A stretch of 61,913 nt of DNA, counting the filler, from Hausera hauseri (lineage: Eukaryota), in the NCBI GenBank assembly GCA_046269625.1. It is 9 parts of 9 records of this genome, joined end to end, with 100 filler letters (N's around TTAATTAATTAA, not from the genome) between each part and the next. Parts side by side here need not be neighbours in the genome. Positions count along the whole stretch, not along the records: positions 1 to 17,282 come from JBJURY010222186.1; 8 more parts are not named here. The stretch is one strand, 5' to 3'. Under the pieces are notes generated by a model, which ran no database searches, was not told the origin of the DNA, and saw nothing but the letters and a program-made list of their open reading frames with translations. Shown here in pieces: positions 129-45,232 of the stretch (position 1 is its first letter; each line of letters starts with the position of its first letter). The translations under genes were made by a program, and so were the position numbers.

Positions 129-147
129 TGGTGCCGCGACCCGGATT
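129..147 (+). promoter_or_regulatory. Primer binding site, tRNA-His type
   Basis: TGGTGCCGCGACCCGGATT, 4 nt after the LTR end; near-complement of the tRNA-His 3' end (TGGTGCCGTGACTCGGATT). Confidence 0.85.
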
Positions 148-951: not shown

Positions 952-1219
952 CTGGATATACATATCCACCATAGTCTACCCCCATTTGACCCCTCCGATC
1001 CACATACTAGAGAATTATTATCTCTCATTACTCCTTATACAGTACTATTTAGTGTTACTAAATGAACGGCCTGATTTAAGACTAAGAATAAGAGTAAGGC
1101 CTTTAACTAATAGAGGCCCTTACAGAGGTTTAGGTGTAGTAAAAGTTGATTTAACTGACTCAAGACCCCGAGTTTTGCAACATTTTTCTTTTGTGTTCAG
1201 TCTATCAGGTTTAAACTAG
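952..1219 (+). pseudogene. Pre-gag accessory ORF, unit A copy, frameshifted by a 10-nt insertion (~1039-1048)
   Basis: Aligns at protein level with unit B 10507-10764; the length difference is exactly 10 nt. Confidence 0.75.
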
Positions 1220-1222
1220 AAA

Positions 1223-2689
1223 ATGGGAAAATCAGCAAGTAAGGTTGAAGGATTAGAAGGAGATGAAAAGTTTATGAATCAAAAACACCCTGGAAGTTGT
1301 ACTTTCAGGAATAAATGGTTAAAGGAAGGTATTAAACTTACACTAAAAGTAGAGACATGGCAAGGACAGGTCTCTAAGAAAGAAGCAGAAAAAGAGAAGG
1401 CAACAGGAAGTAAGAAAAAGAAGCTTGAAGAGGAAGTGCAGGCAGCGAGGCTGTGGTTAGACGAGTCTAAGAATAGAAGAGACCAAGTGAGAGCCTCTAA
1501 GGCTAGAAAGGATGAGGCGGCACTGATGGTCCGCCCTGAAGACAATGAAACACAGCTGAGGCACCGACAGACAGGTCTCCCTCAGAACAGCAAGACCCCT
1601 GTTACAGCTAGTGCCCCTAATGATACTGGACCCCCACCACCCCCCGGTAAAAAACATACAGATGATCCAACTCATGATTATAACACCCGCACCACTTCTA
1701 AAAAACTGACTGCCACCAGACAACTGGACATGACAGCCATGGTTGAACCACCCCCCTATGGACCAGAACCCTCTGAAAGACTATTTGGAAAAGGCGGATT
1801 GTACCCCCTGATTCAGGTGGCCAATCCCAACCCAAAAGAGGAGGACGGCCCTGGAGGGATGGTTCAATATGTGTTCAGACCTTGGACCTTAGCAGAAGCA
1901 CAGGCAGCAGTAGGAGGAGTTACCCCCCACAGAGAAGATGTAGAGAAGTGGGTAGAAGACATGACTCAGGTGCTCCACTCATACCGGTTAAATGGGTTCG
2001 AGGCAGGTCAAGCCTTGCAGTCCTCACTAGGGAAAGATTGGGCTAGGGTCAGAGGAGAATATACAGGAAGGGACAGAACGGGAACTCCCTTTGAGTATCG
2101 CACCACCCCAGATCCAAATGGAGCATTCTCACCTGATTATAGAGCTCAACTGATGGCCCTGTTCGATAGAGTAAGAGAAGCCTTCAAAAAGCGAGCTAAT
2201 TATGCTGAACTGCGCGCTGTGACACAGAAACCCAATGAACCAGTAGATGAATTCAGAGTCAGGTTTGAACAGGCTTTTAAATTACACAGCGGTATACAGT
2301 TTCAGGAAGACGATGACTCAGCATACCAACAGCAGCTCAAACAAGGCCTCTTAGATCAAGCAAAACCTAATCTAAGAACCTGGGTACAGACCCATTTTGT
2401 AAATTGGCCATCTGCAAGTGTTAGTCAGGCCATGGATTGGCTTAGACATGCAGAAAAGGTTAACCCTAAAGATGCAGGAACTTACTCTTTGAATCAATAC
2501 ACAGGAAGAGGACGAGGCAACAGGGGAGGTCCCAGAGGAAGGGGAAACATGGGATACAGGGGAGGCAGAGGAGGTAGAGGTTTTAAACCTAGAGGACAGC
2601 AGAACAATGAAGGCTGCTGGACGTGTGGCTCTCCAGACCACTGGTCCAGAGATTGCCCAAAAAACAACGGCCCCAAACAACAAGCATGA
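1223..2689 (+). CDS. gag: Gag polyprotein
   Basis: MGKSAS myristoylation signal, PPPY late domain, MHR-like QKPNEPVDEF, CCHC knuckle CWTCGSPDHWSRDC. Confidence 0.95.
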   Translation: MGKSASKVEGLEGDEKFMNQKHPGSCTFRNKWLKEGIKLTLKVETWQGQVSKKEAEKEKATGSKKKKLEEEVQAARLWLDESKNRRDQVRASKARKDEAALMVRPEDNETQLRHRQTGLPQNSKTPVTASAPNDTGPPPPPGKKHTDDPTHDYNTRTTSKKLTATRQLDMTAMVEPPPYGPEPSERLFGKGGLYPLIQVANPNPKEEDGPGGMVQYVFRPWTLAEAQAAVGGVTPHREDVEKWVEDMTQVLHSYRLNGFEAGQALQSSLGKDWARVRGEYTGRDRTGTPFEYRTTPDPNGAFSPDYRAQLMALFDRVREAFKKRANYAELRAVTQKPNEPVDEFRVRFEQAFKLHSGIQFQEDDDSAYQQQLKQGLLDQAKPNLRTWVQTHFVNWPSASVSQAMDWLRHAEKVNPKDAGTYSLNQYTGRGRGNRGGPRGRGNMGYRGGRGGRGFKPRGQQNNEGCWTCGSPDHWSRDCPKNNGPKQQA

Positions 2690-3625
2690 CTAGATCAGGA
2701 ACATGAAAACCCACCTACTAAACCAGATGTAGATGTTTATTCAGCATGGGCAGTTCTTAATGCTTTAAAGGAACAACCCTACATAGTTTTAAAGGTGGGT
2801 CAGACAAAGGTTGAATTCCTTTGTGACACAGGTGCATGCAGAACTGTGTTGAAAGACACAGTCCCAGAAATACAACTGTCTAAAAGCACCCTATGGGTCA
2901 GTTCAGCAAATGGACAAATGACTAAAGAATATTTGTCCAAACCCATATCAATTGTGGACCCAGAAACAAACATAACCAAATTTGCACCAATAATAGTCTC
3001 TCCTAAATGCCCCATAAATCTCCTAGGCAGAGACATGATGCAGAAATTAAAGCTTGCTATAGTGCCCACCCAACACGGTATGAGAGTCCACCGTGTAGAA
3101 TCAGTCTTTGTGCTAAATGATTCAGCCCCTACCATGTATGCTTCTCTAGATGTAGAAGCAAATAAGCAAACCAACCCTTTTGAGACGAGAGATCTGATAA
3201 ATGATGCAAAAAGCCAACTCTCCAACCCGCAGACAGAAATAGGTTACAACCATCTGCACGTGACCATGAAACTGTTGAATGACGCACAGGAAGCAAGCCT
3301 GTTTTCACAGTTGGCCCCAGTCACGATGGCAACAGATTATTTATACACAGACAGGTTCTCCTTTTCTGCTGCGAGTGTGCTGTTACCACAAATAATCAGT
3401 TCAGAATTTAACATGCAAAACTGCTCAGTTCCTCATCTCAGTCTGATGAAAGCTGACGATGCCAGCTGGAAAAACACAGGCCCCAGGTTAAAGACTGCAG
3501 CTACAGCCACAGACTGGGAACCAACACAAAATGAGTGGACATTCAGCCCCAGTTGTGGGCTGTGGCGCAAACCTCTGGTGCGAGTGCTTTATGCAGAGCC
3601 AAGGGTACACCCATTAAGTGACTGA
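2690..3625 (+). CDS. pro: Aspartic protease + 2H phosphoesterase-like domain (expressed by readthrough of the gag UGA)
   Basis: Open and in frame directly after the gag stop; FLCDTGA and NLLGRD protease motifs, then LHVTM and PHLSL (HxT/HxS) motifs. Confidence 0.9.
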   Translation, partial: LDQEHENPPTKPDVDVYSAWAVLNALKEQPYIVLKVGQTKVEFLCDTGACRTVLKDTVPEIQLSKSTLWVSSANGQMTKEYLSKPISIVDPETNITKFAPIIVSPKCPINLLGRDMMQKLKLAIVPTQHGMRVHRVESVFVLNDSAPTMYASLDVEANKQTNPFETRDLINDAKSQLSNPQTEIGYNHLHVTMKLLNDAQEASLFSQLAPVTMATDYLYTDRFSFSAASVLLPQIISSEFNMQNCSVPHLSLMKADDASWKNTGPRLKTAATATDWEPTQNEWTFSPSCGLWRKPLVRVLYAEPRVHPLSD

Positions 3626-6600
3626 CGGTGCGCAGCCCTACTATCTGATGAGGATGAGGAATTAATATCCAACTTACCTACATCCCTGTGGTCCCAAGGA
3701 CACTCAGATGTAGGGCTGTTGAACAGTATACCCCCCGTCAGGATCCAACCAAAAGGAACATTCAGACCAAGAATAAAACAATACCCATTAAAACCTGAGG
3801 CTGAAAATGGTGTTGCACCTGTCATACAAGATTTACTCAGAGCTGGAGTTATAAGACCATGTAACTCCTCTCCCTGCAACACACCCATTTTCCCAGTACA
3901 GAAAGCTGACAAACAATCATGGAGATTAGTGCAAGACTTAAGAGCAGTGAACCAAGCCATAATCTCCCGAGCCCCAAATGTGCCAGACCCACACACACTG
4001 TTGAACTCAGTACAAGCAGATTCACACTGGTTTACAGTTTTAGATCTGAGTAACGCTTTCTTTTCAGTTCCCATTCATCCAGACTCACAACACTGGTTTG
4101 CTTTCACTTTCAGAGGACAAAAATACACCTACACCAGATTGCCACAAGGCTTCACAGACAGCCCGACCATTTTTACAGAAGCAATAACTACATGTTTGCA
4201 AAATTTTACACCTAAACATAGCCAATTACTGGTCTACGTAGATGATCTTCTTCTCTGCTCAGACACAAAGGAACACTGCAGACAGGACTCTCTCTCTCTC
4301 TTAAAGTTTCTAGCAGAAACAGGAAACAAAGTAAGCAGGAAAAAGATGCAGTTTGTGCAGCCTGAGGTCATTTACTTAGGTCAAAGTATCTCAGCCTCGG
4401 GGAGGAAACTGCACACAGACAGACGAGAGAGCATTGCAAACGCTCCTAAACCTGAGACAAAGAAACAAATGATGCAATTTCTCGGTTTGTGCAATTATTG
4501 CAGAGCATGGGTGCCAGATTATGCAGGACACACACAGCCTTTGTTAGACATAATCTACTCTACACCCATGTCAATGAATCAAAAGATCATCTGGACTCCT
4601 GAAGCAGAAACAGCTTTCTGTAAAATAAAAGCCCTGCTGGTGCAAAGCACCTCACTGCTACTACCAGACTACTCAAAACCATTTGTGCAAATGGTAGATT
4701 GTAAAAACGGCTTTATGGTTTCAGTGCTAACACAGAAACATGGTGGGAAAAACAAGCCATTAGCATTCTACTCAAAACGCCTGGATCCAGTGGCAACGGC
4801 ACTGCCCCCTTGTGTCCAAGCAGTGTGCGCTGCAGCAATGGCAGTCCAGGCCTCGGCTGATGTGGTTCTGTTCCATGAAACAACACTGTTGGTTCCACAT
4901 GCTGTAGATGTTTTACTCTTACAAAGTAAATTGACAACCCTTTCTCCGGCCAGACAGATAACATACACTGCACTGTTGTTATCACAACCTCACATTACCA
5001 TCCAACGTTGCAATATTTTAAACCCTGCCACACTACTGCCGTGCCCAACTGATGGCAGCCCACACAATTGTGTGACAGAAGCAGACTCTTTGTCCCTGCC
5101 GAGACCTGATTTAAAAGATGTGCCGTTGTCATCAGGAAAAGTGTGGTTTGTTGATGGCTCATGTTCAAAAGCTCAGAATGGAAAAAACCTGTCAGGCTTT
5201 GCAGTAGTTGAACTGCCAAACACAGTAATCTATGCTGCTAAACTACCAGATCATTTCTCCGCCCAAGCAGCAGAAATCCAAGCTCTAACAAAAGCGTGTG
5301 AATTAGCTAAAGGGCAACAATTAACGGTGTATACTGACAGCCAGTATGCATTCTCAACCCTGTTCTATTTTGCAAAACAATGGGAGAGGCGTGGTATGAC
5401 CACATCCACAGGGAAACCTGTGACTCATGCGGCCCTATTAAAAGAGCTCTTAATGGCCATACATTTACCAGCTGCCCTAGCTGTGGTGAAGTGTGCAGCC
5501 CACCAAAAAGGTACAGATTTTGTAACCAGGGGCAACACCCTGGCTGACATAACTGCAAAGCAAGCAGCAGCAGGAGATTTCAACACGGACACACACCTCT
5601 CCTCCACCCAAGCCCCAGCCATTGATGATGACATTCTAAAAAATGCACAACTACTAGCGCCAAAACAGGAAATCCAATCATGGGTCAACAGAGGGGCGAC
5701 ACAGGCTGATGCCATATGGACACTAGATGGCAAACCCGTCCTTCCTAAGTCTCTTTTTAAAGCGGCTGCTGTGGCGACACATGGCCCTTGCCACGTGTCG
5801 ACAGGAGGGATGGTAGAAATAATAACCCAGTGGTTTACAACTATAGGGTTGGAAGGGTACCTTAAACAATTTTGTAAACAATGTGTGACGTGCATAAAAC
5901 ACAATCCACAGGGCAACATGAGACCAAAAAGAGGGGCCTTTCCAGCACCCTCATACCCTTTTCAAACCCTACACATGGACTTTATTGAACTAAATCAGAG
6001 TGGACCACACAGATACTGCTTGGTACTGATAGATGCATTTTCAAAATGGGTTGAAATAATACCCACAGCAAGACCAGATGCATTATCAGTAGCAAAAGCC
6101 ATTTGTAAAGACATTATCCCAGCTCACGGGATACCAGAAACCTTGTACTCAGACAATGGAACACACTTTGTAAATGAAATAGTACAAAATATGGCAGACC
6201 ATCTACAAATAAACTTGAAAAACCATTGTGCCTACCATCCACAAAGTGCTGGATTGGTAGAGAGAACAAATGGAACAATAAAAAGCCGTCTTAAAAAATG
6301 CATGGAAGAGACAGGGAGACCGTGGCCAGAATGTTTACCATTAGTAAAACTGTACATGAGGATCACACCATCTGCTGCAGGCCCAACACCTTTTGAAATA
6401 CTGTATGGAAGACCATACAGATTACCAGTGTTCGATTTAGACAGAGCACATGAAGAAAACACCCTGGCAGATTACATGATAAACACTTTTAAGCTAAAAG
6501 ATGTTCAGAATACAAATGTACTGCCCTCTGGTCCTTTGTCTCCACAGGAAACACCAGTAAAACCAGGAGACTGGGTGTTCATCAAAGTAATAAAAAAGAA

Positions 6601-6733
6601 ACACTGGAACAGCCCAAAGTGGGAGGGACCATATCAAGTGATCCTGACCACACCAACAGCAGTAAAAATCGCTGAAAGACCTTCATGGATACATCTCAGT
6701 CACTGTAAGTTGCAAAAAGTGCTCAGTCCATAG
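3626..6733 (+). CDS. pol: RT - RNase H - integrase (in frame after the second UGA)
   Basis: LPQG and YVDD (RT); WFVDGS and YTDSQY (RNase H); HHCC, D..D..E and GPY (IN); frame open from 3626. Confidence 0.95.
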   Translation, partial: RCAALLSDEDEELISNLPTSLWSQGHSDVGLLNSIPPVRIQPKGTFRPRIKQYPLKPEAENGVAPVIQDLLRAGVIRPCNSSPCNTPIFPVQKADKQSWRLVQDLRAVNQAIISRAPNVPDPHTLLNSVQADSHWFTVLDLSNAFFSVPIHPDSQHWFAFTFRGQKYTYTRLPQGFTDSPTIFTEAITTCLQNFTPKHSQLLVYVDDLLLCSDTKEHCRQDSLSLLKFLAETGNKVSRKKMQFVQPEVIYLGQSISASGRKLHTDRRESIANAPKPETKKQMMQFLGLCNYCRAWVPDYAGHTQPLLDIIYSTPMSMNQKIIWTPEAETAFCKIKALLVQSTSLLLPDYSKPFVQMVDCKNGFMVSVLTQKHGGKNKPLAFYSKRLDPVATALPPCVQAVCAAAMAVQASADVVLFHETTLLVPHAVDVLLLQSKLTTLSPARQITYTALLLSQPHITIQRCNILNPATLLPCPTDGSPHNCVTEADSLSLPRPDLKDVPLSSGKVWFVDGSCSKAQNGKNLSGFAVVELPNTVIYAAKLPDHFSAQAAEIQALTKACELAKGQQLTVYTDSQYAFSTLFYFAKQWERRGMTTSTGKPVTHAALLKELLMAIHLPAALAVVKCAAHQKGTDFVTRGNTLADITAKQAAAGDFNTDTHLSSTQAPAIDDDILKNAQLLAPKQEIQSWVNRGATQADAIWTLDGKPVLPKSLFKAAAVATHGPCHVSTGGMVEIITQWFTTIGLEGYLKQFCKQCVTCIKHNPQGNMRPKRGAFPAPSYPFQTLHMDFIELNQSGPHRYCLVLIDAFSKWVEIIPTARPDALSVAKAICKDIIPAHGIPETLYSDNGTHFVNEIVQNMADHLQINLKNHCAYHPQSAGLVERTNGTIKSRLKKCMEETGRPWPECLPLVKLYMRITPSAAGPTPFEILYGRPYRLPVFDLDRAHEENTLADYMINTFKLKDVQNTNVLPSGPLSPQETPVKPGDWVFIKVIKKKHWNSPKWEGPYQVILTTPTAVKIAERPSWIHLSHCKLQKVLSP
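6526..6548 (+). promoter_or_regulatory. Candidate env splice acceptor within IN
   Basis: Pyrimidine tract ...GTCCTTTGTCTCCACAG|G. Confidence 0.5.
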
Positions 6734-6910
6734 GAGAGGCTGTGGGGAAAGTCCTGGCTACAAAGGGGGGGTGAGCAATATAGAGGCACCTCGTCTCAAA
6801 CCAGGTGAACGTTCGATAGATCCCAGCCTCATTTTAGGCCTATGTGAGAGTGGTTTTGCAACTTAAGCAGTAATACCGAGCCTTTAAGGGGACGGCTTAT
6901 CTGTGTAGTG

Positions 6911-9124
6911 ATGGAGATTGCCATGGAAAGAATCATTGGACGGGCCCCTGTCCCACCACAGGACGAGGAGGACCCGGAACCAGAGGAAATGGTGCCAGAA
7001 ACCAGGCTCCAAAAATGGAGAAGAAGAACTGAACAATTCTTCTGGTTTGACGAGACCCCATGCTGGGTCTATTTGCTTTCATTTTTATTAAGTGCATGTT
7101 TGATGATTTTTCTAATGTTTAAGATTTTGTATCCTTTGATTGCAGGCCTTCCGATCCTCTCTCCTCCATGGACCACCCAGTCACATGACAGACCAAGGCG
7201 AACACTAGGGGTAGGAACACATAACTGGGCCATAGCAGGGAACAATCTGGTGAGACGCCACTTATGGAAAGCATCCTGTGTACGTCCTCAAACAAACATT
7301 ACAGTACAAGAAGGGACAACATCCACAGTTATGCTGGACCCGTGTCTTTATTTTCACTGTGATGACCCCAGGAAGTTAGGACATCCAGATATTTATGTAT
7401 GTGGAAAAAGGTTCTATGACAAACATGACTGCCCAAACTGTGATGCTTGGGACTACGCGTATTGGACCACATCACACAAAGATTGGGGGTATAAAATAGG
7501 TGAAGACAATAGCAACCTCAAAACCAGACTAACCATATGGAAAGTAAACTCTAGTTCACCTGCAGTAATGCTACAACTAAACAATGCTACTAAGAATGAC
7601 CAGGGTTTTTTCGTAGTCTGTGCCTATGTATCAGGAACCGACCCCTGCGCTCCTTTCTACTTGGAAGTTGTTAGCAAACCTGAAGAGGTAAAAAACCCCG
7701 TATATGTCCAACTAGGAGGTGGTGAGACTGAAACACATGTGCACCCGGAAGTAGACTCAGAACATCACTGGGCACACACCCCTATTTCTTTAAAAGGTAA
7801 CAAATGGTGGTCAGTACTGAGAAGCCTAACAGAGGCGGCAGGAGTTAATTCCTCTTGCTATGCCTGTACTCTATTTCCACATGACAATTTAGGAGCCATG
7901 CCAATAAGACCAGAACCCTTGCCTAAAAAACAGGTGGCCTGTACACTCCTAGCCTTGACCCCACCATTCCAATCCGCAGCAAATGGATGGAATGTGACCA
8001 GAAGTAACCTAACTGGGATATGTGCCAGTTTTGCAAACTTGACTGTAAGAACCAGTTCCAGTTTAAAGTTAAAAACCAAAGACATGCAGCTTTTTGCTCC
8101 CTTAGGATCTGTCCACCCCAAACACTTACAGATCACACACCCTGTTTGTTTTACCAGACCACTGACCAACAGAAGAGTTTTCATGGGACATGTTCAACAT
8201 TGTGAACAAATTTTTAATGCAACTTGTGGTGAGGCACCCTCAAACTTTTCAGATTGTTATGCAGGGACTCCTCAGGGCAAGGTTAATATCAGTACTCAGT
8301 TTAATCTTACACTCCCGGAAGCTGTAGCCATATGGCCCTCAGACTCTGGAGCTGGTAGCCTAAGGGGAAGTGTATGGTTGTGTGGGAACCACTATCATCA
8401 GGCTCTGCCTCCCATGTGGGCAGGGACCTGTGCTCTGGTGGAAATGAGACCCGCAGTGACATTAATGTCCTCTCTGGTGTACTCAACCCACCACTACCCC
8501 CACTACCGGATGCCTCCAAGCATGGACAGGAAAAAGAGGGATACTGTGGTCGTTTCGGGAGGAGCTAAATTCCTGTCAGGAATTTTGCCCTGGTGGGGAA
8601 CTGTAAACAACGCCCACCACATTGATAAATTGCACTTACAGTTAGAAAATTTGACTGCTTTAGTTGGTGATGGTTTCTCGGCTCTCACACCTTATCTGGC
8701 AGCCTCTAGGAACATGCTCACACAACACCAGATGGCTTTGGACATTTTGTTTGCCTCACAAGGAGGCTTATGTCACATCATAGGTGACTCATGCTGTACC
8801 TACTTACCCGACCCCACTGGAAATCTGACAGAGACTATTACACACTTAAACACCCTGCTTGCTACTATGAAGGAAGATGACGTACAGACGCCTGAGGGGT
8901 GGGACTGGTGGTCCTGGATGACGGGAGGTGGATGGAAAGCCTGGGCAGGCCGAATTGTGGTGCCTTTATTTTTCTTTCTACTATTAATTCTAATAATAGC
9001 TTGTTGTATTATTCCTGCTTTCAAGAAATGCATTGCTTCCATTTTTGTTCAGATGTTTTATCATCACATGCAACAGTATGCTCTTGTGGCTCAAGATGAG
9101 CCAGATGACAGCACTGCTGTTTAA
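6911..9124 (+). CDS. env: Envelope glycoprotein (gamma-type)
   Basis: N-terminal hydrophobic segment, CYAC (CXXC), RKKR furin site, fusion peptide, ISD-like QHQMALDILFASQGGLC, CX6CC, TM anchor; ATG at 6911. Confidence 0.95.
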   Translation: MEIAMERIIGRAPVPPQDEEDPEPEEMVPETRLQKWRRRTEQFFWFDETPCWVYLLSFLLSACLMIFLMFKILYPLIAGLPILSPPWTTQSHDRPRRTLGVGTHNWAIAGNNLVRRHLWKASCVRPQTNITVQEGTTSTVMLDPCLYFHCDDPRKLGHPDIYVCGKRFYDKHDCPNCDAWDYAYWTTSHKDWGYKIGEDNSNLKTRLTIWKVNSSSPAVMLQLNNATKNDQGFFVVCAYVSGTDPCAPFYLEVVSKPEEVKNPVYVQLGGGETETHVHPEVDSEHHWAHTPISLKGNKWWSVLRSLTEAAGVNSSCYACTLFPHDNLGAMPIRPEPLPKKQVACTLLALTPPFQSAANGWNVTRSNLTGICASFANLTVRTSSSLKLKTKDMQLFAPLGSVHPKHLQITHPVCFTRPLTNRRVFMGHVQHCEQIFNATCGEAPSNFSDCYAGTPQGKVNISTQFNLTLPEAVAIWPSDSGAGSLRGSVWLCGNHYHQALPPMWAGTCALVEMRPAVTLMSSLVYSTHHYPHYRMPPSMDRKKRDTVVVSGGAKFLSGILPWWGTVNNAHHIDKLHLQLENLTALVGDGFSALTPYLAASRNMLTQHQMALDILFASQGGLCHIIGDSCCTYLPDPTGNLTETITHLNTLLATMKEDDVQTPEGWDWWSWMTGGGWKAWAGRIVVPLFFFLLLILIIACCIIPAFKKCIASIFVQMFYHHMQQYALVAQDEPDDSTAV

Positions 9125-9143
9125 ACACCCTCTTTTACAGCTT

Positions 9144-9157
9144 AAACAGGAGGGATA
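9144..9157 (+). promoter_or_regulatory. Polypurine tract
   Basis: AAACAGGAGGGATA immediately before the LTR TG (again at 16684-16697). Confidence 0.85.
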
Positions 9158-9742
9158 TGTAAAGGATTTTCCTTTACATTATATTTTATTATTACTTGTT
9201 TATTCATTAAAGTATCTGTTTTTTAGTTAAGCTGTTTTACAGAGTGTGTGTGTGCTGTGAAAGGTCGTCTGCAGGTCGTCTGCAGTATCAAGCCAGCCAG
9301 TACTTCCTGTTAATCTTTTTTGAGATGCAGCTGTGAGCGGTTGCCGAACCTCGTACGAGATCGAGACATCAGACCACACTCTGCTCCAAAACATGTTTGT
9401 CATGCCCATATTTAGTCATGGAACGCGATGTATCTAAACGTTTCTTTGCATTCTATTAATATATATTTTGCTCATATATTATAACCACCACCCAGCAACA
9501 GTAAAAGTAACTTCTTTGCTGATTGGTGGTTTTTCACTTCCTGTTGTGAATAAAAACGATCACGCCGAGCCCCGAGGTCAGAGCTTCGATACATCAGCTG
9601 CCGTTAAGTTGAGTATTCTGAATCTCTCCTTTTGCAAAAGCGTAAGATCTTCAAAATCTCACGAATTGTCTGGTTGGTCTGTTAATGTTGGTTAATGGGG
9701 ATCGCTTGTGTTTAACTTGAGCTTACAGGAAAATATCCAACA
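9158..9742 (+). repeat. LTR (585 bp) shared between units A and B
   Basis: TGT...ACA termini, PPT before and PBS after; differs from the terminal LTR at 3 positions in U5. Confidence 0.95.
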
Positions 9743-9746
9743 TTTC

Positions 9747-9764
9747 TGGTGCCGTGACCCGGAT
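9747..9764 (+). promoter_or_regulatory. Primer binding site, tRNA-His type
   Basis: TGGTGCCGTGACCCGGAT after the LTR. Confidence 0.88.
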
Positions 9765-10506
9765 GGAATTCATCCTACACTGACGGGCAGACAGGACGCG
9801 CCGAACCCAGTGCACGGGCGGGTCCCCCGAACCTGAAAGAAAGCCTCGGAGGACTTCGTTTCTTCACGAGCCGGCGTTCTAGGTCCAAACTCCAACTGTC
9901 AGTGTCGGATGAACTTCCATCCACACTGTGACAGACGACAGACATTAGTGAGTATAAAATTGTGAACTTGTATGAATGATTTGAAAGAAAAGTGAAACAA
10001 GGGACAAGTATACACGGGGAAACAGAGAGTACAGGATAGGATCCTGGTACTGTGTGGGTTAAAGACCCGACACTTTAGAGTGGATCGAATTTTTAGTACG
10101 GAAAACTAGTTCGAGTCCAGGTCTAAAAATAAGAAAGTTTTTGAGTGGTTAATCCACAAGATAAAATTTTAAAAGTTAAACCCCGGTCCCGTTGTTAACA
10201 GAATTGTGCGTGTATGATTTGTACAAATGAGATGTGTATGAATGAGGGGAACTAAGAATTGGACTGGTGGTTCGTCCTGAAACCTGACGGTGTCAACATA
10301 CAGACGGACTACTTCTCCATTTCGGACCCTATTAAGGAGAATTTTAGGAGACTGAGACAGAATTTAATTCAAAATATTTGGATGAACCTGTCTATGTCTC
10401 ACATATATTAATAACATCACATATAAATTAATAAAACAACCAATAAATACGCAGAGTACTATTAAAGAATTACAATTTTAAATGATCACAGATTCCTAAA
10501 TTTATA

Positions 10507-10764
10507 CTGGAGTTACACGTCCATAGGCAACTTCCTCGTTTTGACCCACAAAACCCTCATACACGCGAATTACTTGATTTACTCCAACCCTATTTAGAGT
10601 TACTAAGAGAACGCCCTGAGTGTAAACTCTGTATTAAAATAAGACCTCTCACGCCTAGAGGTTTATACAGAGGATTAGGAGTTGTAAAAGTGGATTTAAT
10701 AGATCCAGTACAAGGAATTACGCAGCATTATTCTTTTGTATTTAGTTTAACAGGATTAAACTAG
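10507..10764 (+). CDS. Pre-gag accessory protein, 85 aa, putative CUG start (absent from ORF track)
   Basis: ATA-CTG-G start; LELHVHRQLPRFDPQNPHTRELLDLLQPYLELLRERPECKLCIKIRPLTPRGLYRGLGVVKVDLIDPVQGITQHYSFVFSLTGLN*; conserved with unit A through synonymous and conservative changes. Confidence 0.7.
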   Translation: MELHVHRQLPRFDPQNPHTRELLDLLQPYLELLRERPECKLCIKIRPLTPRGLYRGLGVVKVDLIDPVQGITQHYSFVFSLTGLN

Positions 10765-10767
10765 AAA

Positions 10768-12240
10768 ATGGGAAAATCGGCAAGTAAGGTTGAAGGATTA
10801 GAAGGAGATGAGAAGTTTATGAATCAAAAACACCCTGGAAGCTGTACTTTCAGAAACAAATGGTTGAAAGAAGGAATTAAACTTACCTTGAAAGTAGAGA
10901 CATGGCAGGGTCAGGTCTCTAAGAAAGAAGCAGAAAAAGAGAAGGCGACAGGAAGTAAGAAAAAGAAACTTGAGGAGGAAGTGCAGACAGCGAGGCTGTG
11001 GTTAGACGAGTCTAAAATTAGAAGAGACCAAGTGAGAGCCTCTAAGGCTAGAAAGGACGAGGCGGCCCTACTGGTTCGCCCTGAAGATAATGAAACACAA
11101 CTGAGACGCCGCCAGCCAGGCCCCCCACATGGCAGTAAGACCCCTGTTACAGCCAGTGCCCCTGAAGCCACTGACCCTCCTCCACCCCCTGATAAACAAC
11201 CAGATGACCCGTCCCATGATTACAACACCCGTACCACTTCCAAAAAATTGACTGCCACCCGACAACTGAACATGACAGCTATGATCGAACCACCCCCTTA
11301 CGGACCAGAGCCCTCTGAAACACCATTTGGGAAGGGTGGATTGTACCCCCTGATCCAGGTGGCCAATCCCAACCCAAAAGAGGAGGATGGGCCTGAGGGG
11401 ATGGTCCAATACGTATTTAGACCATGGACACTGGCAGAAGCACAAGCAGCAGTGGGAGGAGTGACTCCCCACAGGGAAGATACAGAGAAGTGGGTAGAAG
11501 ACATGACCCAGGTACTTCACTCATACCGGTTGAACGGGTTTGAGGCAGGTCAGGCTCTACAGTCCTCATTAGGGAAAGATTGGGCTAGGGTCAGAGGCGA
11601 TTATACAGGCAGGGACAGAGTAGGAACCCCTTTTGAGTACCGCACCACACCAGATCCAAATGGAGCATTCCCTCCTGACTATAAAGCTCAGTTGATGGCC
11701 CTGTTTGATAGGGTGAGAGAGGCTTTCAAAAAACGTGCAAATTATGCCGAACTACGGGCAGTAACACAAAGACCCAGTGAGCCAGTAGATGAGTATAGGG
11801 TTAGGTTTGAGCAGGCCTTTAAATTACACAGCGGCATACAATTTCAGGAAGGAGATGACTCAGCATACCAACAGCAGCTCAAACAAGGCCTCCTAGACCA
11901 AGCAAAACCTAATCTGAGAACTTGGGTTCAAACCCATTTTGTGAACTGGCCCTCTGCAAGTGTTAGTCAGGCCATGGACTGGCTTAGACATGCTGAAAAA
12001 GTTAACCCTAAGGATGCAGGTACTTACTCTCTAAACCAACCTCAATACACAGGGAGAGGAAGAGGTAACAGAAGAGGATTTAGAGGCAGAGGAGGCAGAG
12101 GATTTAAACCCACCAGGCCCCAAACAAACAGATTTAGAGGACCTCAAGGCAACAGCGACGGCTGCTGGACTTGTGGTTCTCCTGACCATTGGGCCAAGAA
12201 CTGTCCAAAAAATACAAGCAAAACTAATCCACAAGCATGA
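10768..12240 (+). CDS. gag: Gag polyprotein (diverged variant)
   Basis: Intact paralog of 1223-2689 with many synonymous differences. Confidence 0.95.
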   Translation: MGKSASKVEGLEGDEKFMNQKHPGSCTFRNKWLKEGIKLTLKVETWQGQVSKKEAEKEKATGSKKKKLEEEVQTARLWLDESKIRRDQVRASKARKDEAALLVRPEDNETQLRRRQPGPPHGSKTPVTASAPEATDPPPPPDKQPDDPSHDYNTRTTSKKLTATRQLNMTAMIEPPPYGPEPSETPFGKGGLYPLIQVANPNPKEEDGPEGMVQYVFRPWTLAEAQAAVGGVTPHREDTEKWVEDMTQVLHSYRLNGFEAGQALQSSLGKDWARVRGDYTGRDRVGTPFEYRTTPDPNGAFPPDYKAQLMALFDRVREAFKKRANYAELRAVTQRPSEPVDEYRVRFEQAFKLHSGIQFQEGDDSAYQQQLKQGLLDQAKPNLRTWVQTHFVNWPSASVSQAMDWLRHAEKVNPKDAGTYSLNQPQYTGRGRGNRRGFRGRGGRGFKPTRPQTNRFRGPQGNSDGCWTCGSPDHWAKNCPKNTSKTNPQA

Positions 12241-13170
12241 CTAGATCATGAAACCCCGCCCACCAAACCGGATGTGGATGTTTATTCAGCATGGACAGTC
12301 CTTAATGCTTTAAAAGAACAACCCTACATAGTTTTAAAGGTGGGCCAAACAAAAGTTGAGTTTCTTTGTGATACAGGTGCATGCAGAACTGTGTTAAAAG
12401 ACACAGTTCCAGAAATACAGTTGTCCAACAGCACCCTATGGGTCAGTTCTGCAAATGGACAAATGACCAAGGAATATCTGTCTAAACCTATATCAATTGT
12501 GGACCCGGAAACGAACATAACTAAAACCGCACCAATAATAGTCTCCCCCAAGTGTCCAATAAATCTACTGGGGCGAGACATGATGCAAAAACTAAAACTG
12601 GCCATAGTGCCCACCAAAAATGGAATGAGGGCCCACCGTGTAGAATCAGTTTTTGTACTTCACGATTCATCACCCACCATGTATGCATCTTTAGATGTAG
12701 AAGCAAATAAACAAGCTAATCCTTTTGAGACAAGAGATCTGATCAATGACGGAAAAAGACAACTCTCACACCCACAGACAGAAATAGGTTACAATCATCT
12801 GCACGTGACCATGAAACTGTTAAACGATGCACAGGAAGCAAGCCTGTTTTCACAGCTGGCCCCAGTCACGATGGCAACAGACTATTTATACACAGACAGG
12901 TTCTCCTTTTCGGCTGCGAGTGTGCTGTTACCACAAATAATCAGTTCAGAATTTAACATGCAGAACTGTTCAGTTCCCCACCTCAGTCTTATGAAACCTG
13001 AGGACTCCAGTTGGAAAAACACAGGCCCGAGATTAAAAACTGCAGCCGCTGCCACAGACTGGGAACAATCACAAAGTGAGTGGACATTCAGCCCCAGTTG
13101 TGGACTATGGCGGAAACCTCTAGTAAGAGTGCTTTATGCAGAACCAAAAGTACACCCATTAAGTGACTGA
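12241..13170 (+). CDS. pro: Protease + 2H phosphoesterase-like domain (readthrough)
   Basis: Same motifs as unit A; bounded by TGA-CTAG and TGA-CGG. Confidence 0.9.
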   Translation, partial: LDHETPPTKPDVDVYSAWTVLNALKEQPYIVLKVGQTKVEFLCDTGACRTVLKDTVPEIQLSNSTLWVSSANGQMTKEYLSKPISIVDPETNITKTAPIIVSPKCPINLLGRDMMQKLKLAIVPTKNGMRAHRVESVFVLHDSSPTMYASLDVEANKQANPFETRDLINDGKRQLSHPQTEIGYNHLHVTMKLLNDAQEASLFSQLAPVTMATDYLYTDRFSFSAASVLLPQIISSEFNMQNCSVPHLSLMKPEDSSWKNTGPRLKTAAAATDWEQSQSEWTFSPSCGLWRKPLVRVLYAEPKVHPLSD

Positions 13171-14273
13171 CGGTGCGCGGCCCTACTATCTGATGAGGAT
13201 GAGAAATTAATATCCAATCATGGGTCAACAGAGGGGCGACACAGGCTGATGCCATATGGACACTGGATGGCAAACCCGTCCTTCCTAAGTCTCTTTTTAA
13301 AGCGGCTGCTGTGGCGACACATGGCCCTTGCCACGTGTCGACAGGAGGGATGGTAGAAATAATAACCCAGTGGTTTACAACTATAGGGTTGGAAGGGTAC
13401 CTTAAACAATTTTGTAAACAATGTGTGACGTGCATAAAACACAATCCACAGGGCAACATGAGACCAAAAAGAGGGGCCTTTCCAGCACCCTCATACCCTT
13501 TTCAAACCCTACACATGGACTTTATTGAACTAAATCAGAGTGGACCACACAGATACTGCTTGGTACTGATAGATGCATTTTCAAAATGGGTTGAAATAAT
13601 ACCCACAGCAAGACCAGATGCATTATCAGTAGCAAAAGCCATTTGTAAAGACATTATCCCAGCTCACGGGATACCAGAAACCTTGTACTCAGACAATGGA
13701 ACACACTTTGTAAATGAAATAGTACAAAATATGGCAGACCATCTACAAATAAACTTGAAAAACCATTGTGCCTACCATCCACAAAGTGCTGGATTGGTAG
13801 AGAGAACAAATGGAACAATAAAAAGCCGTCTTAAAAAATGCATGGAAGAGACAGGGAGACCGTGGCCAGAATGTTTACCATTAGTAAAACTGTACATGAG
13901 GATCACACCATCTGCTGCAGGCCCAACACCTTTTGAAATACTGTATGGAAGACCATACAGATTACCAGTGTTCGATTTAGACAGAGCACATGAAGAAAAC
14001 ACCCTGGCAGATTACATGATAAACACTTTTAAGCTAAAAGATGTTCAGAATACAAATGTACTGCCCTCTGGTCCTTTGTCTCCACAGGAAACACCAGTAA
14101 AACCAGGAGACTGGGTGTTCATCAAAGTAATAAAAAAGAAACACTGGAACAGCCCAAAGTGGGAGGGACCATATCAAGTGATCCTGACCACACCAACAGC
14201 AGTAAAAATCGCTGAAAGACCTTCATGGATACATCTCAGTCACTGTAAGTTGCAAAAAGTGCTCAGTCCATAG
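13171..14273 (+). pseudogene. pol: pol remnant: RT/RNase H deleted, integrase out of frame
   Basis: Junction at ATCCAA (13212-13217) joins unit-A equivalents 3667-3672 and 5672-5677. Confidence 0.9.
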
Positions 14274-14450
14274 GAGAGGCTGTGGGGAAAGTCCTGGCTA
14301 CAAAGGGGGGGTGAGCAATATAGAGGCACCTCGTCTCAAACCAGGTGAACGTTCGATAGATCCCAGCCTCATTTTAGGCCTATGTGAGAGTGGTTTTGCA
14401 ACTTAAGCAGTAATACCGAGCCTTTAAGGGGACGGCTTATCTGTGTAGTG

Positions 14451-16664
14451 ATGGAGATTGCCATGGAAAGAATCATTGGACGGGCCCCTGTCCCACCACA
14501 GGACGAGGAGGACCCGGAACCAGAGGAAATGGTGCCAGAAACCAGGCTCCAAAAATGGAGAAGAAGAACTGAACAATTCTTCTGGTTTGACGAGACCCCA
14601 TGCTGGGTCTATTTGCTTTCATTTTTATTAAGTGCATGTTTGATGATTTTTCTAATGTTTAAGATTTTGTATCCTTTGATTGCAGGCCTTCCGATCCTCT
14701 CTCCTCCATGGACCACCCAGTCACATGACAGACCAAGGCGAACACTAGGGGTAGGAACACATAACTGGGCCATAGCAGGGAACAATCTGGTGAGACGCCA
14801 CTTATGGAAAGCATCCTGTGTACGTCCTCAAACAAACATTACAGTACAAGAAGGGACAACATCCACAGTTATGCTGGACCCGTGTCTTTATTTTCACTGT
14901 GATGACCCCAGGAAGTTAGGACATCCAGATATTTATGTATGTGGAAAAAGGTTCTATGACAAACATGACTGCCCAAACTGTGATGCTTGGGACTACGCGT
15001 ATTGGACCACATCACACAAAGATTGGGGGTATAAAATAGGTGAAGACAATAGCAACCTCAAAACCAGACTAACCATATGGAAAGTAAACTCTAGTTCACC
15101 TGCAGTAATGCTACAACTAAACAATGCTACTAAGAATGACCAGGGTTTTTTCGTAGTCTGTGCCTATGTATCAGGAACCGACCCCTGCGCTCCTTTCTAC
15201 TTGGAAGTTGTTAGCAAACCTGAAGAGGTAAAAAACCCCGTATATGTCCAACTAGGAGGTGGTGAGACTGAAACACATGTGCACCCGGAAGTAGACTCAG
15301 AACATCACTGGGCACACACCCCTATTTCTTTAAAAGGTAACAAATGGTGGTCAGTACTGAGAAGCCTAACAGAGGCGGCAGGAGTTAATTCCTCTTGCTA
15401 TGCCTGTACTCTATTTCCACATGACAATTTAGGAGCCATGCCAATAAGACCAGAACCCTTGCCTAAAAAACAGGTGGCCTGTACACTCCTAGCCTTGACC
15501 CCACCATTCCAATCCGCAGCAAATGGATGGAATGTGACCAGAAGTAACCTAACTGGGATATGTGCCAGTTTTGCAAACTTGACTGTAAGAACCAGTTCCA
15601 GTTTAAAGTTAAAAACCAAAGACATGCAGCTTTTTGCTCCCTTAGGATCTGTCCACCCCAAACACTTACAGATCACACACCCTGTTTGTTTTACCAGACC
15701 ACTGACCAACAGAAGAGTTTTCATGGGACATGTTCAACATTGTGAACAAATTTTTAATGCAACTTGTGGTGAGGCACCCTCAAACTTTTCAGATTGTTAT
15801 GCAGGGACTCCTCAGGGCAAGGTTAATATCAGTACTCAGTTTAATCTTACACTCCCGGAAGCTGTAGCCATATGGCCCTCAGACTCTGGAGCTGGTAGCC
15901 TAAGGGGAAGTGTATGGTTGTGTGGGAACCACTATCATCAGGCTCTGCCTCCCATGTGGGCAGGGACCTGTGCTCTGGTGGAAATGAGACCCGCAGTGAC
16001 ATTAATGTCCTCTCTGGTGTACTCAACCCACCACTACCCCCACTACCGGATGCCTCCAAGCATGGACAGGAAAAAGAGGGATACTGTGGTCGTTTCGGGA
16101 GGAGCTAAATTCCTGTCAGGAATTTTGCCCTGGTGGGGAACTGTAAACAACGCCCACCACATTGATAAATTGCACTTACAGTTAGAAAATTTGACTGCTT
16201 TAGTTGGTGATGGTTTCTCGGCTCTCACACCTTATCTGGCAGCCTCTAGGAACATGCTCACACAACACCAGATGGCTTTGGACATTTTGTTTGCCTCACA
16301 AGGAGGCTTATGTCACATCATAGGTGACTCATGCTGTACCTACTTACCCGACCCCACTGGAAATCTGACAGAGACTATTACACACTTAAACACCCTGCTT
16401 GCTACTATGAAGGAAGATGACGTACAGACGCCTGAGGGGTGGGACTGGTGGTCCTGGATGACGGGAGGTGGATGGAAAGCCTGGGCAGGCCGAATTGTGG
16501 TGCCTTTATTTTTCTTTCTACTATTAATTCTAATAATAGCTTGTTGTATTATTCCTGCTTTCAAGAAATGCATTGCTTCCATTTTTGTTCAGATGTTTTA
16601 TCATCACATGCAACAGTATGCTCTTGTGGCTCAAGATGAGCCAGATGACAGCACTGCTGTTTAA
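14451..16664 (+). CDS. env: Envelope glycoprotein, same protein as unit A
   Basis: Identical translation in the ORF track. Confidence 0.95.
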   Translation: MEIAMERIIGRAPVPPQDEEDPEPEEMVPETRLQKWRRRTEQFFWFDETPCWVYLLSFLLSACLMIFLMFKILYPLIAGLPILSPPWTTQSHDRPRRTLGVGTHNWAIAGNNLVRRHLWKASCVRPQTNITVQEGTTSTVMLDPCLYFHCDDPRKLGHPDIYVCGKRFYDKHDCPNCDAWDYAYWTTSHKDWGYKIGEDNSNLKTRLTIWKVNSSSPAVMLQLNNATKNDQGFFVVCAYVSGTDPCAPFYLEVVSKPEEVKNPVYVQLGGGETETHVHPEVDSEHHWAHTPISLKGNKWWSVLRSLTEAAGVNSSCYACTLFPHDNLGAMPIRPEPLPKKQVACTLLALTPPFQSAANGWNVTRSNLTGICASFANLTVRTSSSLKLKTKDMQLFAPLGSVHPKHLQITHPVCFTRPLTNRRVFMGHVQHCEQIFNATCGEAPSNFSDCYAGTPQGKVNISTQFNLTLPEAVAIWPSDSGAGSLRGSVWLCGNHYHQALPPMWAGTCALVEMRPAVTLMSSLVYSTHHYPHYRMPPSMDRKKRDTVVVSGGAKFLSGILPWWGTVNNAHHIDKLHLQLENLTALVGDGFSALTPYLAASRNMLTQHQMALDILFASQGGLCHIIGDSCCTYLPDPTGNLTETITHLNTLLATMKEDDVQTPEGWDWWSWMTGGGWKAWAGRIVVPLFFFLLLILIIACCIIPAFKKCIASIFVQMFYHHMQQYALVAQDEPDDSTAV

Positions 16665-16697
16665 ACACCCTCTTTTACAGCTTAAACAGGAGGGATA

Positions 16698-17282
16698 TGT
16701 AAAGGATTTTCCTTTACATTATATTTTATTATTACTTGTTTATTCATTAAAGTATCTGTTTTTTAGTTAAGCTGTTTTACAGAGTGTGTGTGTGCTGTGA
16801 AAGGTCGTCTGCAGGTCGTCTGCAGTATCAAGCCAGCCAGTACTTCCTGTTAATCTTTTTTGAGATGCAGCTGTGAGCGGTTGCCGAACCTCGTACGAGA
16901 TCGAGACATCAGACCACACTCTGCTCCAAAACATGTTTGTCATGCCCATATTTAGTCATGGAACGCGATGTATCTAAACGTTTCTTTGCATTCTATTAAT
17001 ATATATTTTGCTCATATATTATAACCACCACCCAGCAACAGTAAAAGTAACTTCTTTGCTGATTGGTGGTTTTTCACTTCCTGTTGTGAATAAAAACGAT
17101 CACGCCGAGCCCCGAGGTCAGAGCTTCGATACATCAGCTGCCGTTAAGTTGAGTATTCTGAATCTCTCCTTTTGCAAAAGCGTAAGATCTTCAAAATCTC
17201 ACGAATTGTCTGGTTGGTCTGTTAATGTTGGTTAACGGGGATTGCTTGTGTTTAACTTGAGCTTACAGAAAAATATCCAACA
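16698..17282 (+). repeat. LTR (585 bp)
   Basis: Copy of 9158-9742, preceded by the PPT. Confidence 0.95.
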
Positions 17283-22453: not shown

Positions 22454-23779
22454 GTGGCGACAGAACGAGTACCAATTAGACTAGTGAATAATGCACCAAC
22501 TCCCGTAAGGTTGCATGCCAATTCTACATTGGGCCATACTTATAAGATGTCAGCGATAACAATCGAAGAAAAACCATACAAATGTGCTGAATTTCCACCT
22601 CACGTCGAAACTAAATTTTCACCAGAAGTATATTGACAGTTTTATTAACTATTATGCAAATACCAGTCGGTTATTGCCCAAAATGAAGAAGATATAGGCA
22701 GAGCAAAAGCCCTAAGGCTAACAATCCCACTAAAAAAGAAACTTGGCTCCAATGACTAAATCGATTTGGAAGGGCAAAAGGTGCCCAAATGGTACCCACC
22801 ACCTCATTCATTGATGTCCGAAATAACTAAAGAGATAGAACGCATGTTCAAAGCCAACATAATACGACCAAGCTACCTATCTTGGTATTCACAAATACTC
22901 ATGGTTAAAAAGAAAAATACCACTAAACATAGATTCTGTATAGATTACCGAGCTCTAAACACTCTTATGATGAAGGACTCATTTCCACTACCGTCAGTAA
23001 AGGAAGCATTAGATAGATTATCAGGAGAAAAATGGTTTACCACACTGGACTTACAATCCGGATACTGGCAAGTAGAAATTGAAGAAGACGATTGTTACAA
23101 AACAGCGTTTAAGACGCACGACGGAGTTTACGAATTTAACGTCATTCCGTTCGGTATAAACACCGACCCAGCTATCTTCACCAGAATGATGAATAAAATG
23201 CTAATGGGACTCGATCGTGCATTTGCATACTTAGGCGATATAATGATAGCATCAAGAACAGAAGAAGAACACCTAAAGGACATCGAAGACACTCTCATGC
23301 GGTTGGAACAAGCAGAATTAAAACTGAACCCAAAGAAATGTAAATGGGCACAAAATACTGTATAATATCTCGGACATATAGTTGGAGAAGGAGGGTCAAA
23401 ACCAGATAAATCTTTACTAAACAAAATATCGGATTGTATAGAACCCCAGAACCAAAAAGAATTAAAACATTGGTTAGGCTTATGTGGATATTATGCAACT
23501 TATGTGCCAGACAATTCAAAAATAAATGCGCCGTTATATGGGCTATTGAAAAAAGGTATCAAATGGAAATGGACCGATGTCGAACAGAAAGCTTTCGACG
23601 AAATGAAAAAAATTCTAACAAATGAACCGGTGTTGAGATACCCAAATTTTAATTTACCATTTATAATTAAAACAGACTCAAGTAAAGAATGAATTGGTTA
23701 CGAGTTAGTTCAGAAAAGAGAAGACGAAGAAGTGGAACACTCAATTGCATACAGAGGACGATTGCTGAAGAAAGCCGAA
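22454..23779 (+). pseudogene. Ty3/Gypsy pol fragment (RT, start of RNase H)
   Basis: RFCIDYRALN, LDLQSGYWQV, AYLGD (decayed YLDD), FIIKTD; internal stops and frameshifts. Confidence 0.9.
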
Positions 23780-29543: not shown

Positions 29544-29643
29544 NNNNNNNNNNNNNNNNNNNNNNNNNNNNNNNNNNNNNNNNNNNNTTAATTAATTAAN
29601 NNNNNNNNNNNNNNNNNNNNNNNNNNNNNNNNNNNNNNNNNNN

Positions 29644-40716: not shown

Positions 40717-41058
40717 CCATTCATTCTTCTTGAAATGCTCGTCCACGGTCCCATTCGTGGTGGGTTCTGGGTTCGACTGATCCTTCTCGTTCTTCTGTTT
40801 TCCAGCATCATCTTTGACCGACGTCTTTCCTCCTTCTCCAGGCAGGGCTACCTCACCCACTCCCAGTGCGTCCTCCTTGAAGCTTGTCACAAACTGAGCC
40901 ATGGCTTTGACTTCAGCCTCCGACATGTTGTGGCACTTGGACGGGTCATGATCATAGTCAGGGAGCTGCCTCGTCAGCTGCCTGCGCCGATACGAAGCCC
41001 CATCGGTGCCTGCGACGGGCTGCATTTCCTCTGGGAGAAGCTCAATGTATTGCATACA
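40717..41058 (-). CDS. lmcd1: Exon encoding the PET domain of LIM and cysteine-rich domains protein 1 (testin family)
   Basis: QYIELLP...[24 protein letters not shown]...[11 protein letters not shown]; donor GTACGT at 40716-40711. Confidence 0.75.
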
Positions 41059-41065
41059 TGCATTC

Positions 41066-41097
<32 letters not shown>

Positions 41098-41140
41098 TTT
41101 GTAGGCTTTGTTTTCTTAACCTGTCGTATTTTCTTTCAAG

Positions 41141-41585
41141 TGAGCATGCAGAGCGGAATGAAGACGCTGTTCTACATCCTGCCCATTGCCACTATCTGCG
41201 TCCGCTGGAACAAACGTTTGATCCAAAGAAAGTCGTAGCGACAACCAAAGAAGGACAAACCATCCTCTGTCACTGCGAGGACGCAGTATACAACGAACCA
41301 AGTCAAAACGAGGTCAAAAACACGCCTTGTAGGGACAAGTGTCAAGACGACGTCGTAGAAAGCAGAGGCAATAAGAGATACATAGCTAGAACCTACAGAG
41401 CATACGGGGTTTCCAGTACCTCTAGTGTAGCGTTACCTGGGTATTGTGACTGGAAAACAGAGATTAGAACCCACCAGTTGAATCAGTTACCAGAGTGGGA
41501 AAAGAGTATCACTAATTATTTCTGTAAGGTCACCAGAAGCAAGGGCCGGGTCACAATCTACAAGTTTAAAAAGTTAGAACTCTAG
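41141..41585 (+). CDS. Orphan Cys/His-containing ORF, possibly a spliced accessory exon of an LTR element
   Basis: Open frame following the acceptor TTTTCTTTCAAG|; lies upstream of the second ORF and the LTR. Confidence 0.35.
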
Positions 41586-41640
41586 GAAAGGCTGACGCTA
41601 GTTGCCTAGATATAGGATACTAGTTCCCAAGATTAACACC

Positions 41641-44579: not shown

Positions 44580-45232
44580 CCTGGACTCTAAAGATAGCCA
44601 GATCGAGTACCAATTGCAATGCTAGACAAGNNNNNNNNNNNNNNNNNNNNNNNNNNNNNNNNNNNNNNNNNNNNTTAATTAATTAANNNNNNNNNNNNNN
44701 NNNNNNNNNNNNNNNNNNNNNNNNNNNNNNTTGATTTTAGCACACAAGCAAGTGAAAACCGGAAAATGTAAAAGCGTACACATATAGAATCTAACATGTT
44801 CTGTATCCGAATATGACGTCAGATATTCGAAAAGAGCCTTAAATAAAAAAACCGATTTTTCAATCGAATATTCAAATAGTAACATCGGATTTCCCATGTC
44901 CGAAAACCTTTGCAAACCAAAAATAGGGTGTGCAAAGTGTTTGGAACAGTCTCGAAATGAATAAGACATTGAAAAATTCGATAATATTCGGTCAAGAATA
45001 CATTATTGGAAAAATCTGATCACTCCATTCGATTGCCCATGCATGAAAACCTATTTGGCGCCCAAGTGCAATTAATTTATTTGATGCATTAAAATAAAGT
45101 GTTCTAGAATGTTCGAAAATTTAAAAAATCCATAAATGAGGTAGTATGCGTTGATATGGCTATATGTTTCGTTATTTCCAAAATCACGTCCACGAATGGT
45201 GAGATTTTTATTTGTGCTCCTGAAATAATTGG

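Follow-up and report, generated by a model that had tools for sequence, protein, structure and literature searches.

A leader frame under purifying selection upstream of gag in a fish endogenous retrovirus likely encodes a small CUG-started accessory protein

Epsilon-like endogenous retroviruses (ERV) with a plain gag-pro-pol-env layout are annotated without accessory genes, and in surveys they have, as described in PMC12690878, often been measured from gag to env, with the leaders left out. The window analyzed here, a stretch of 61,913 nucleotides from Hausera hauseri, raises the question whether the leader of such an element encodes a protein of its own. An original prediction proposed that an 85-codon ORF immediately upstream of gag, starting at a CTG, encodes an unannotated accessory protein, possibly coupled to gag by reinitiation or by a third readthrough. 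The ORF lies in a tandem ERV that takes up the window's first 17.3 kb with the arrangement LTR-internal-LTR-internal-LTR, in which two units have the middle LTR in common. Its main features are as follows.

129..146, + strand: primer-binding site (PBS) of unit 1
1223..2689, + strand: gag of unit 1
9157..9742, + strand: middle LTR, the 3' LTR of unit 1 and the 5' LTR of unit 2
9747..9764, + strand: PBS of unit 2
10768..12240, + strand: gag of unit 2, with a strong-context ATG and a Met-Gly start 3 nt past the ORF stop, ending in UGA-CUAG

The middle LTR differs from the last LTR at three of 586 nt. Two in-frame UGA stops separate gag, pro plus an extra domain, pol, and env, which follow in this order in unit 1. 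RT and RNase H are absent from unit 2. The gag-pro regions of the two units are 85% alike and 5672-9742 is 99.9% alike to 13212-17282, an uneven likeness that marks the tandem array as a recombinant or an assembly chimera. Closest to Pol among PDB sequences are MLV-type RT p80 (E 6e-140), then foamy virus and HIV. A Pfam search found MLVIN_C (the integrase C terminus) and TLV_coat (gamma-type Env), and the named Gag relatives come from the genomes of killifish, poeciliids, pipefish, fugu, and seabream. With its MLV-like RT/RNase H, MLV-type integrase tail, gamma-type Env, and in-frame UGA stops, all of them class I (gamma/epsilon-like) features, the element is by sequence a class I, epsilon-like fish ERV. 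Its PBS is putatively of the tRNA-His type; the window contains no tRNA gene. WDSV is likewise described as a fish class I virus with a His-tRNA primer (PMC3185748). The walleye viruses of the genus Epsilonretrovirus carry orf A (rv-cyclin) and orf B between env and the 3' LTR, whereas the element here is without both, the gap between the env stop (9124) and the LTR (~9157) being ~30 nt.

The two UGA stops follow each other between gag, pro plus the extra domain, and RT (2687-2692, 3623-3628, 12238-12243, and 13168-13173). Their contexts are UGA-CUA-G and UGA-CGG, followed by a predicted stem (z −1.95, −2.20, and −3.92 at the three sites tested). Because the stops stand in series, Pol would need double readthrough; for fish retroviruses, only single gag-pol readthrough sites are tabulated in the review PMC13517186. 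The extra domain 3' of the protease (3060-3625 and 12600-13170) has two His-x-Thr/Ser motifs and is left unnamed by Pfam. Going by these motifs, it is likely a 2H phosphodiesterase. CNPase ORFs in fish ERVs are reported in PMC4977317, and UGA gag-pol readthrough in ZFERV/SSSV-like teleost ERVs in PMC13517186. These ERVs resemble the element here in their UGA readthrough and in having extra enzyme domains such as CNPase, but the accessible text of the two papers (PMC13517186, PMC4977317) mentions no CUG-started leader ORF in them. Our search, mostly of open-access literature, found no description of a CUG-started pre-gag ORF in fish ERVs, and an earlier mention is possible.

The ORF and its counterpart in the other unit are placed as follows.

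952..1219, + strand: unit-1 counterpart of the ORF, with the frame broken near 1039-1048
10507..10764, + strand: 85-codon ORF of unit 2, from a putative CTG start to a TAG stop

In unit 2, the CTG (10507-10509) has an A at −3 and a G at +4, the frame 5' of it stays open for just seven more codons, and the TAG (10762-10764) is followed by AAA and the gag ATG at 10768. Unit 1 has a CTG in the same context (952) and the same TAG-AAA-ATG ending, so that both ends of the ORF, and its being in frame with gag, are as predicted. A related peptide had been seen in both units, and its quoted motifs are indeed present, the unit-1 pieces having 62 and 66% identity to the unit-2 protein, but unit 1 has no single ORF here: reading from its CTG reaches a stop after 37 codons, and the motifs of the C-terminal part are in a different frame. 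The leaders, thought to be poorly alignable elsewhere, are only partly so, with the first 200 nt after the PBS 85-90% alike and a conserved hairpin island at ~10257-10322. Frames of at least 85 codons occurred in 4.3% of 2000 leader shuffles, a proportion that alone makes the length weak evidence.

Further copies came from a search for near-identical sequence across runs, which gave 19 runs, each from a different organism and none on record as RNA; seven (X4, X6, X12, X13, X14, X15, and X16) were aligned to the two ORF stretches. On the unit-2 stretch, X4 has a copy that is identical across the ORF (one difference in 480 nt), and X6 has a variant with at least 21 differences in the ORF, among the 22 of 27 differences listed, and no indel. 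On the unit-1 stretch, X4 and X12 have one further type, which is intact at the unit-1 break site and has no other ORF indel; codon changes among the differences listed for it (40 of 75) reach codon 24. X15 (unit-2 stretch) and X14 (unit-1 stretch) reach the 3' end of the ORF only, and nothing aligned in X13 and X16. There are four ORF sequence types in all, at least ~67% alike, and the ORF is in frame with gag, with the TAG between them, in every copy seen. Frequent frame disruption was named beforehand as a sign against a gene; a break by indel affects the unit-1 copy but neither X6 nor X4/X12. Near-identical words from 9740-11200 are present in all 19 listed runs (shares 0.09-0.91), and this near-identity, with seven runs aligned, is a hint of recent between-host spread. 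Both a unit-2 copy and one like unit 1 are present in X4; in X6, a single uniform contig reaches a depth of ~1600, a depth that gives no copy number. The viral contigs and metagenome contigs searched contained no ORF locus.

Codon comparisons were made at three levels of divergence between these copies. Between units 1 and 2, the 85 codon pairs, split into two pieces for comparison, gave a pS of 0.59 and a pN of 0.25 (dN/dS 0.27, Fisher p 3e-6), with both halves significant (p 1e-4 for the N-terminal piece and 1e-3 for the C-terminal piece). This dN/dS is well below the 0.84 and 1.42 of the remaining sense frames, each with 14 stop-bearing pairs out of 83; the antisense frames gave 1.29, 1.58, and, in the shadow frame, 0.40 with four stop-bearing pairs out of 83. 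Among the differences listed between X6 and unit 2, 13 are synonymous and eight non-synonymous, with no stop (pN/pS 0.18, binomial p 1e-4), and between X4/X12 and unit 1, over 952-1023, the numbers are nine and three (0.10, binomial p 2e-4). The three comparisons have branches in common and their p-values were not multiplied. As judged from these substitution patterns, the comparisons show that the leader frame is under protein-level purifying selection. Indels place the 5' edge of this selection at the CTG, where conservation had been said to set in: X4/X12 and unit 1 differ by ten indels in the 161 nt before it (791-951), the last at 944, and by none in 952-1234 (283 nt) except the break of unit 1 itself (p 4e-5, or 3e-4 with the break counted), with selection detectable from about codon 4-6. 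The first 100 codons of gag have a dN/dS of 0.02, so that the ORF changes ~10 times faster than the start of Gag. The leader ORF is very probably a real gene.

Where translation of this gene would start is suggested by the CTG itself. With its A−3 and G+4, it is unchanged in three of the four sequence types (the X6 type ends too near the CTG to show it), even though 80% of the synonymous sites in the N-terminal piece differ, and among in-frame near-cognate codons it alone has both A−3 and G+4, in either unit. The absence of an in-frame ATG, as originally claimed, extends in unit 2 to all frames between the CTG and the gag ATG, with 0 ATG versus 4.4 expected (base shuffle p 0.009; codon resampling p 0.025). 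X6 differences create no ATG in the ORF, and the broken unit-1 copy has one between CTG and gag, out of frame (1062). Upstream, between PBS and CTG, the two leaders have 9 and 12 AUGs, which would make plain scanning inefficient. None is in strong context, and the uORFs are all of 18 codons or fewer. Most of these AUGs have a pyrimidine at −3 (8/9, binomial p 0.014, and 11/12, p 0.0009), compared with 6/15, 27/47, and 23/39 of the out-of-frame ATGs of gag, pol, and env, but several derive from one repeated motif and the counts are not independent. No hairpin is predicted just downstream of the CUG (z −0.05 and −0.30). We infer that the CUG context, the absence of ATG, and the weak upstream AUGs fit scanning with a leaky CUG start, and the CUG is quite probably where the ORF starts.

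Some 55 nt upstream of the CTG, within AT-rich sequence, is a short conserved block with the palindrome AGTACT (893-905 and 10450-10462). It could be a dimerization loop. A role of the AT-rich sequence as an internal promoter or poly(A) site was dropped by eye, the spacing differing between units.

The leader also has candidate splicing signals.

9948..9953, + strand: donor-like GT, the sole one of the unit-2 leader, found as a simple consensus match; the unit-1 site is at 331
10724..10745, + strand: acceptor-like pyrimidine tract and AG, overlapping the last codons of the ORF; the unit-1 copy is at 1179-1200

The acceptor-like AG (10745/1200) lies 22 nt upstream of the gag ATG. Of the 58 and 59 AGs in the two leaders, it shares first rank, on an ad hoc score devised after the site was noticed. 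Joined to the donor at 9948/331, it would give a gag mRNA rid of most upstream AUGs, and the ORF, downstream of the donor-like GT, lies inside the predicted intron. The conserved donor and the many upstream AUGs could also serve a gene with a different start, reached by non-canonical splicing or a frameshift to an upstream AUG, or located at another near-cognate codon, and an alignment of units 1 and 2 that offsets the first few codons can be made as well. Such a start is nevertheless unlikely. The indels at 932 and 944 in X4/X12 shift the upstream frame, so that no upstream frame is common to the copies, and no uORF reaches the ORF. A canonical acceptor between 944 and the first selected codons is ruled out in unit 1, which has no AG there; no conserved acceptor was found before the CTG, and the invariance of the CTG amid its diverged synonymous sites is a further point against another start.

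A protein started at this CUG would have ~9.9 kDa and a pI of 8.8, with no hydrophobic span (best 19-residue mean 0.75) and a predicted amphipathic helix. AlphaFold, given a three-row alignment, predicted a compact fold of one helix and a three-strand sheet (pLDDT 71.8, pTM 0.55), whereas a control built alike from one antisense frame of gag reached a pLDDT of 39.7 and a pTM of 0.24. The predicted secondary structure is as follows.

residues 17-35: helix
residues 40-47, 57-66, and 70-80: strands

This contrast in fold and the codon statistics both support the proposal of an unannotated accessory protein under purifying selection. Searches for relatives were largely empty. Pfam gave 0 families for the protein; a word search found no candidate among near-length proteins, with 0 of 8000 longer ones scored; and the best hits were 0.86 in the ESM Atlas, a lead only, and E 0.49 among PDB sequences. 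HMMER, run against 1.84 billion representatives, gave one match, rejected because it is a repeat protein whose eight stretches sum up. Absence from sequence libraries is weak evidence, as these hold called genes, in which families of ATG-less ORFs are under-represented. Fold searches found nothing at E ≤0.001 in PDB and BFVD, and the best VIA match (Z 5.3) stood among unrelated clamps and nucleases. Likeness to T7 gp1.2-type dGTPase inhibitors (TM 0.44-0.55, 6-10% identity) was taken as that of a generic helix plus meander. Given libraries of called genes and the low scores of small folds, the missing relatives do not prove a new fold. Conserved ExxxLL/I and YRGL strings, which resemble sorting motifs, were set aside, as chance alone would produce them and the predicted helix buries part of them.

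Among retroviral leader products, glyco-Gag of M-MuLV initiates at a CUG placed 88 codons upstream of the gag AUG; the product continues into Gag and is a type II membrane protein (PMC3423011). The ORF here is like glyco-Gag (gPr80) in its upstream in-frame CUG, 87 codons (261 nt) before the gag ATG and presumably used as a start, and in its expected origin from unspliced RNA. A counterpart of glyco-Gag, with an ORF-Gag fusion made by readthrough of the UAG as the main product, would suit this spacing, the frame kept with gag in every copy, and the two other readthrough sites of the element. It is very unlikely all the same, and the third readthrough that had been suggested is unlikely. An in-frame state has a prior of one in three, the junction being without indel, and the open frame is not continuous with gag: a TAG stands in every copy, and the UAG, with A next and no stem-loop downstream (z +1.27 and −0.60), is unlike both UGA-C sites with their stems. 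In place of a membrane anchor or a signal-anchor (type II) segment, the sequence predicts a soluble alpha/beta domain, a helix and three strands, that would fold alone. All nine Gag relatives with a matching N terminus, among 14 listed, start Met-Gly without an upstream extension; the ORF had no match among 16 Gag relatives (best E ~1 in this 16-sequence set); and a weak search found no longer fused protein. Coupling to gag by reinitiation, the other route originally suggested, is not needed, since a gag RNA spliced in the leader, or ribosomes that leak past the CUG, would suffice. Gag would be made either by a leak past the CUG to the strong AUG or from leader-spliced RNA, and under both routes the ORF would be read only from unspliced RNA.

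RNA structure, the alternative source of conservation that the prediction had named, alone does not explain the conservation of the ORF. The RNA of the unit-2 ORF folds better than its shuffles (z −3.25), but that of unit 1 folds differently (z −1.44), with 38 of the 80 predicted unit-2 pairs broken in unit 1. Paired sites are less often identical than unpaired ones (100/156 versus 71/99), and of the 12 X6 changes that fall in stems, 8 break pairs. It is much the same for a regulatory uORF or RNA element that tunes Gag output through a peptide doing little itself, to which we give little credence: the fold of unit 2, the overlap of the last codons with the acceptor-like tract, and a stop 3 nt before the gag AUG are what such an element would look like, but pairs are kept neither between units nor in X6, and amino acids are constrained in both halves of the ORF. 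One structure of the leader is conserved outside the ORF.

10257..10322, + strand: conserved leader hairpin, from an alignment of two sequences only; the unit-1 copy is at ~704-769

It has 26 predicted pairs, five of which have changes on both sides and none of which is broken, in these two sequences, and, ~190-240 nt before the CUG, it is possibly a packaging or translation element. Finally, a fading relic of a gene once AUG-started, its translation lost, would agree with the missing ATG and with one broken copy out of the window's two but is hardly credible, as close variants are still under selection (X6 versus unit 2, at least 21 differences in 255 nt, pN/pS 0.18), all copies lack an in-frame ATG where visible, and the break affects one integrated copy among those examined.

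The CUG-started, separate protein that we prefer also invites comparison with Orf C of WDSV, which has ~120 residues and starts at an AUG. With 85 residues and no ATG, the ORF here is unlike Orf C. As described in PMC3185748, orf C stops 7 bp short of gag, its translation is presumed to be from genomic RNA, and Orf C is mitochondrial and induces apoptosis. The two loci are alike in being separate small ORFs directly 5' of gag (7 bp versus a 3-nt gap), here also downstream of the donor-like site, and an amphipathic helix is predicted in both proteins. Orf C (WDSV/WEHV) was not among the sequence or fold matches of the ORF, in libraries that may not include Orf C. The ORF is Orf C-like in layout and glyco-Gag-like in start, and it is not a member of the glyco-Gag group, two of whose defining features it lacks. 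Two short CUG ORFs in the XMRV leader, for which PMC3423011 reports no activity and does not show selection, call for caution with the leader CUG ORF here. The primate class I ERVs HERV-T and HERV-W have a coding or conserved pre-gag region after the 5' LTR (PMC5388530, PMC5775608), alike in position, and no sequence link between these regions and the ORF was found.

Taken together, it is rather likely that the selected 85-codon frame of the leader gives a small, separately folded accessory protein, started at the CUG on unspliced RNA and not fused to Gag. Ribosomes would scan through the short weak-context upstream AUGs or reinitiate after them, and a minority would start at the CUG and make the ORF protein, while the rest would go on to the strong gag AUG, unless Gag comes from leader-spliced RNA without the ORF. 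A weak CUG start would keep the amount of ORF protein low relative to that of Gag, and the protein would be confined to cells making genomic RNA. As for its role, we tentatively propose, by analogy, a low-level, soluble, late-phase adaptor that may bind a host protein of the producer cell, e.g. a restriction or cell-death factor. This host-facing role is suggested by a pre-gag position like that of the walleye virus Orf C and by the dN/dS of 0.27 versus 0.02; faster change than at the start of Gag would be expected of a host-facing accessory protein. A wider reading is rather unlikely: a new, independently folded accessory protein whose CUG at the glyco-Gag position would make it a split state linking gammaretroviral glyco-Gag and epsilonretroviral Orf C, translated from the unspliced genome, with Gag made from leader-spliced mRNA, a reading that also takes in a retrovirus family recently spreading in fish and a gag acceptor in the last codons of the ORF.

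Ordinary annotation would miss a selected leader gene with no ATG, and leaders of this kind merit a search for near-cognate starts. The ORF offers a testable small protein without known relative, a handle on the origin of pre-gag accessory genes (glyco-Gag, Orf C), and another on the translation of Gag downstream of a 1-kb leader with its many AUGs.

Elsewhere in the window, inspection by eye found broken LINE-type endonuclease/RT ORFs (29592-31992) and Polinton/Maverick-like fragments of a protein-primed family B DNA polymerase (45224-48865). Further ORFs, without explanation, lie at 40911-42855 and 57893-60719, and 22458-23750 and 52459-53744 are inverted 1.3-kb copies with 82% identity.
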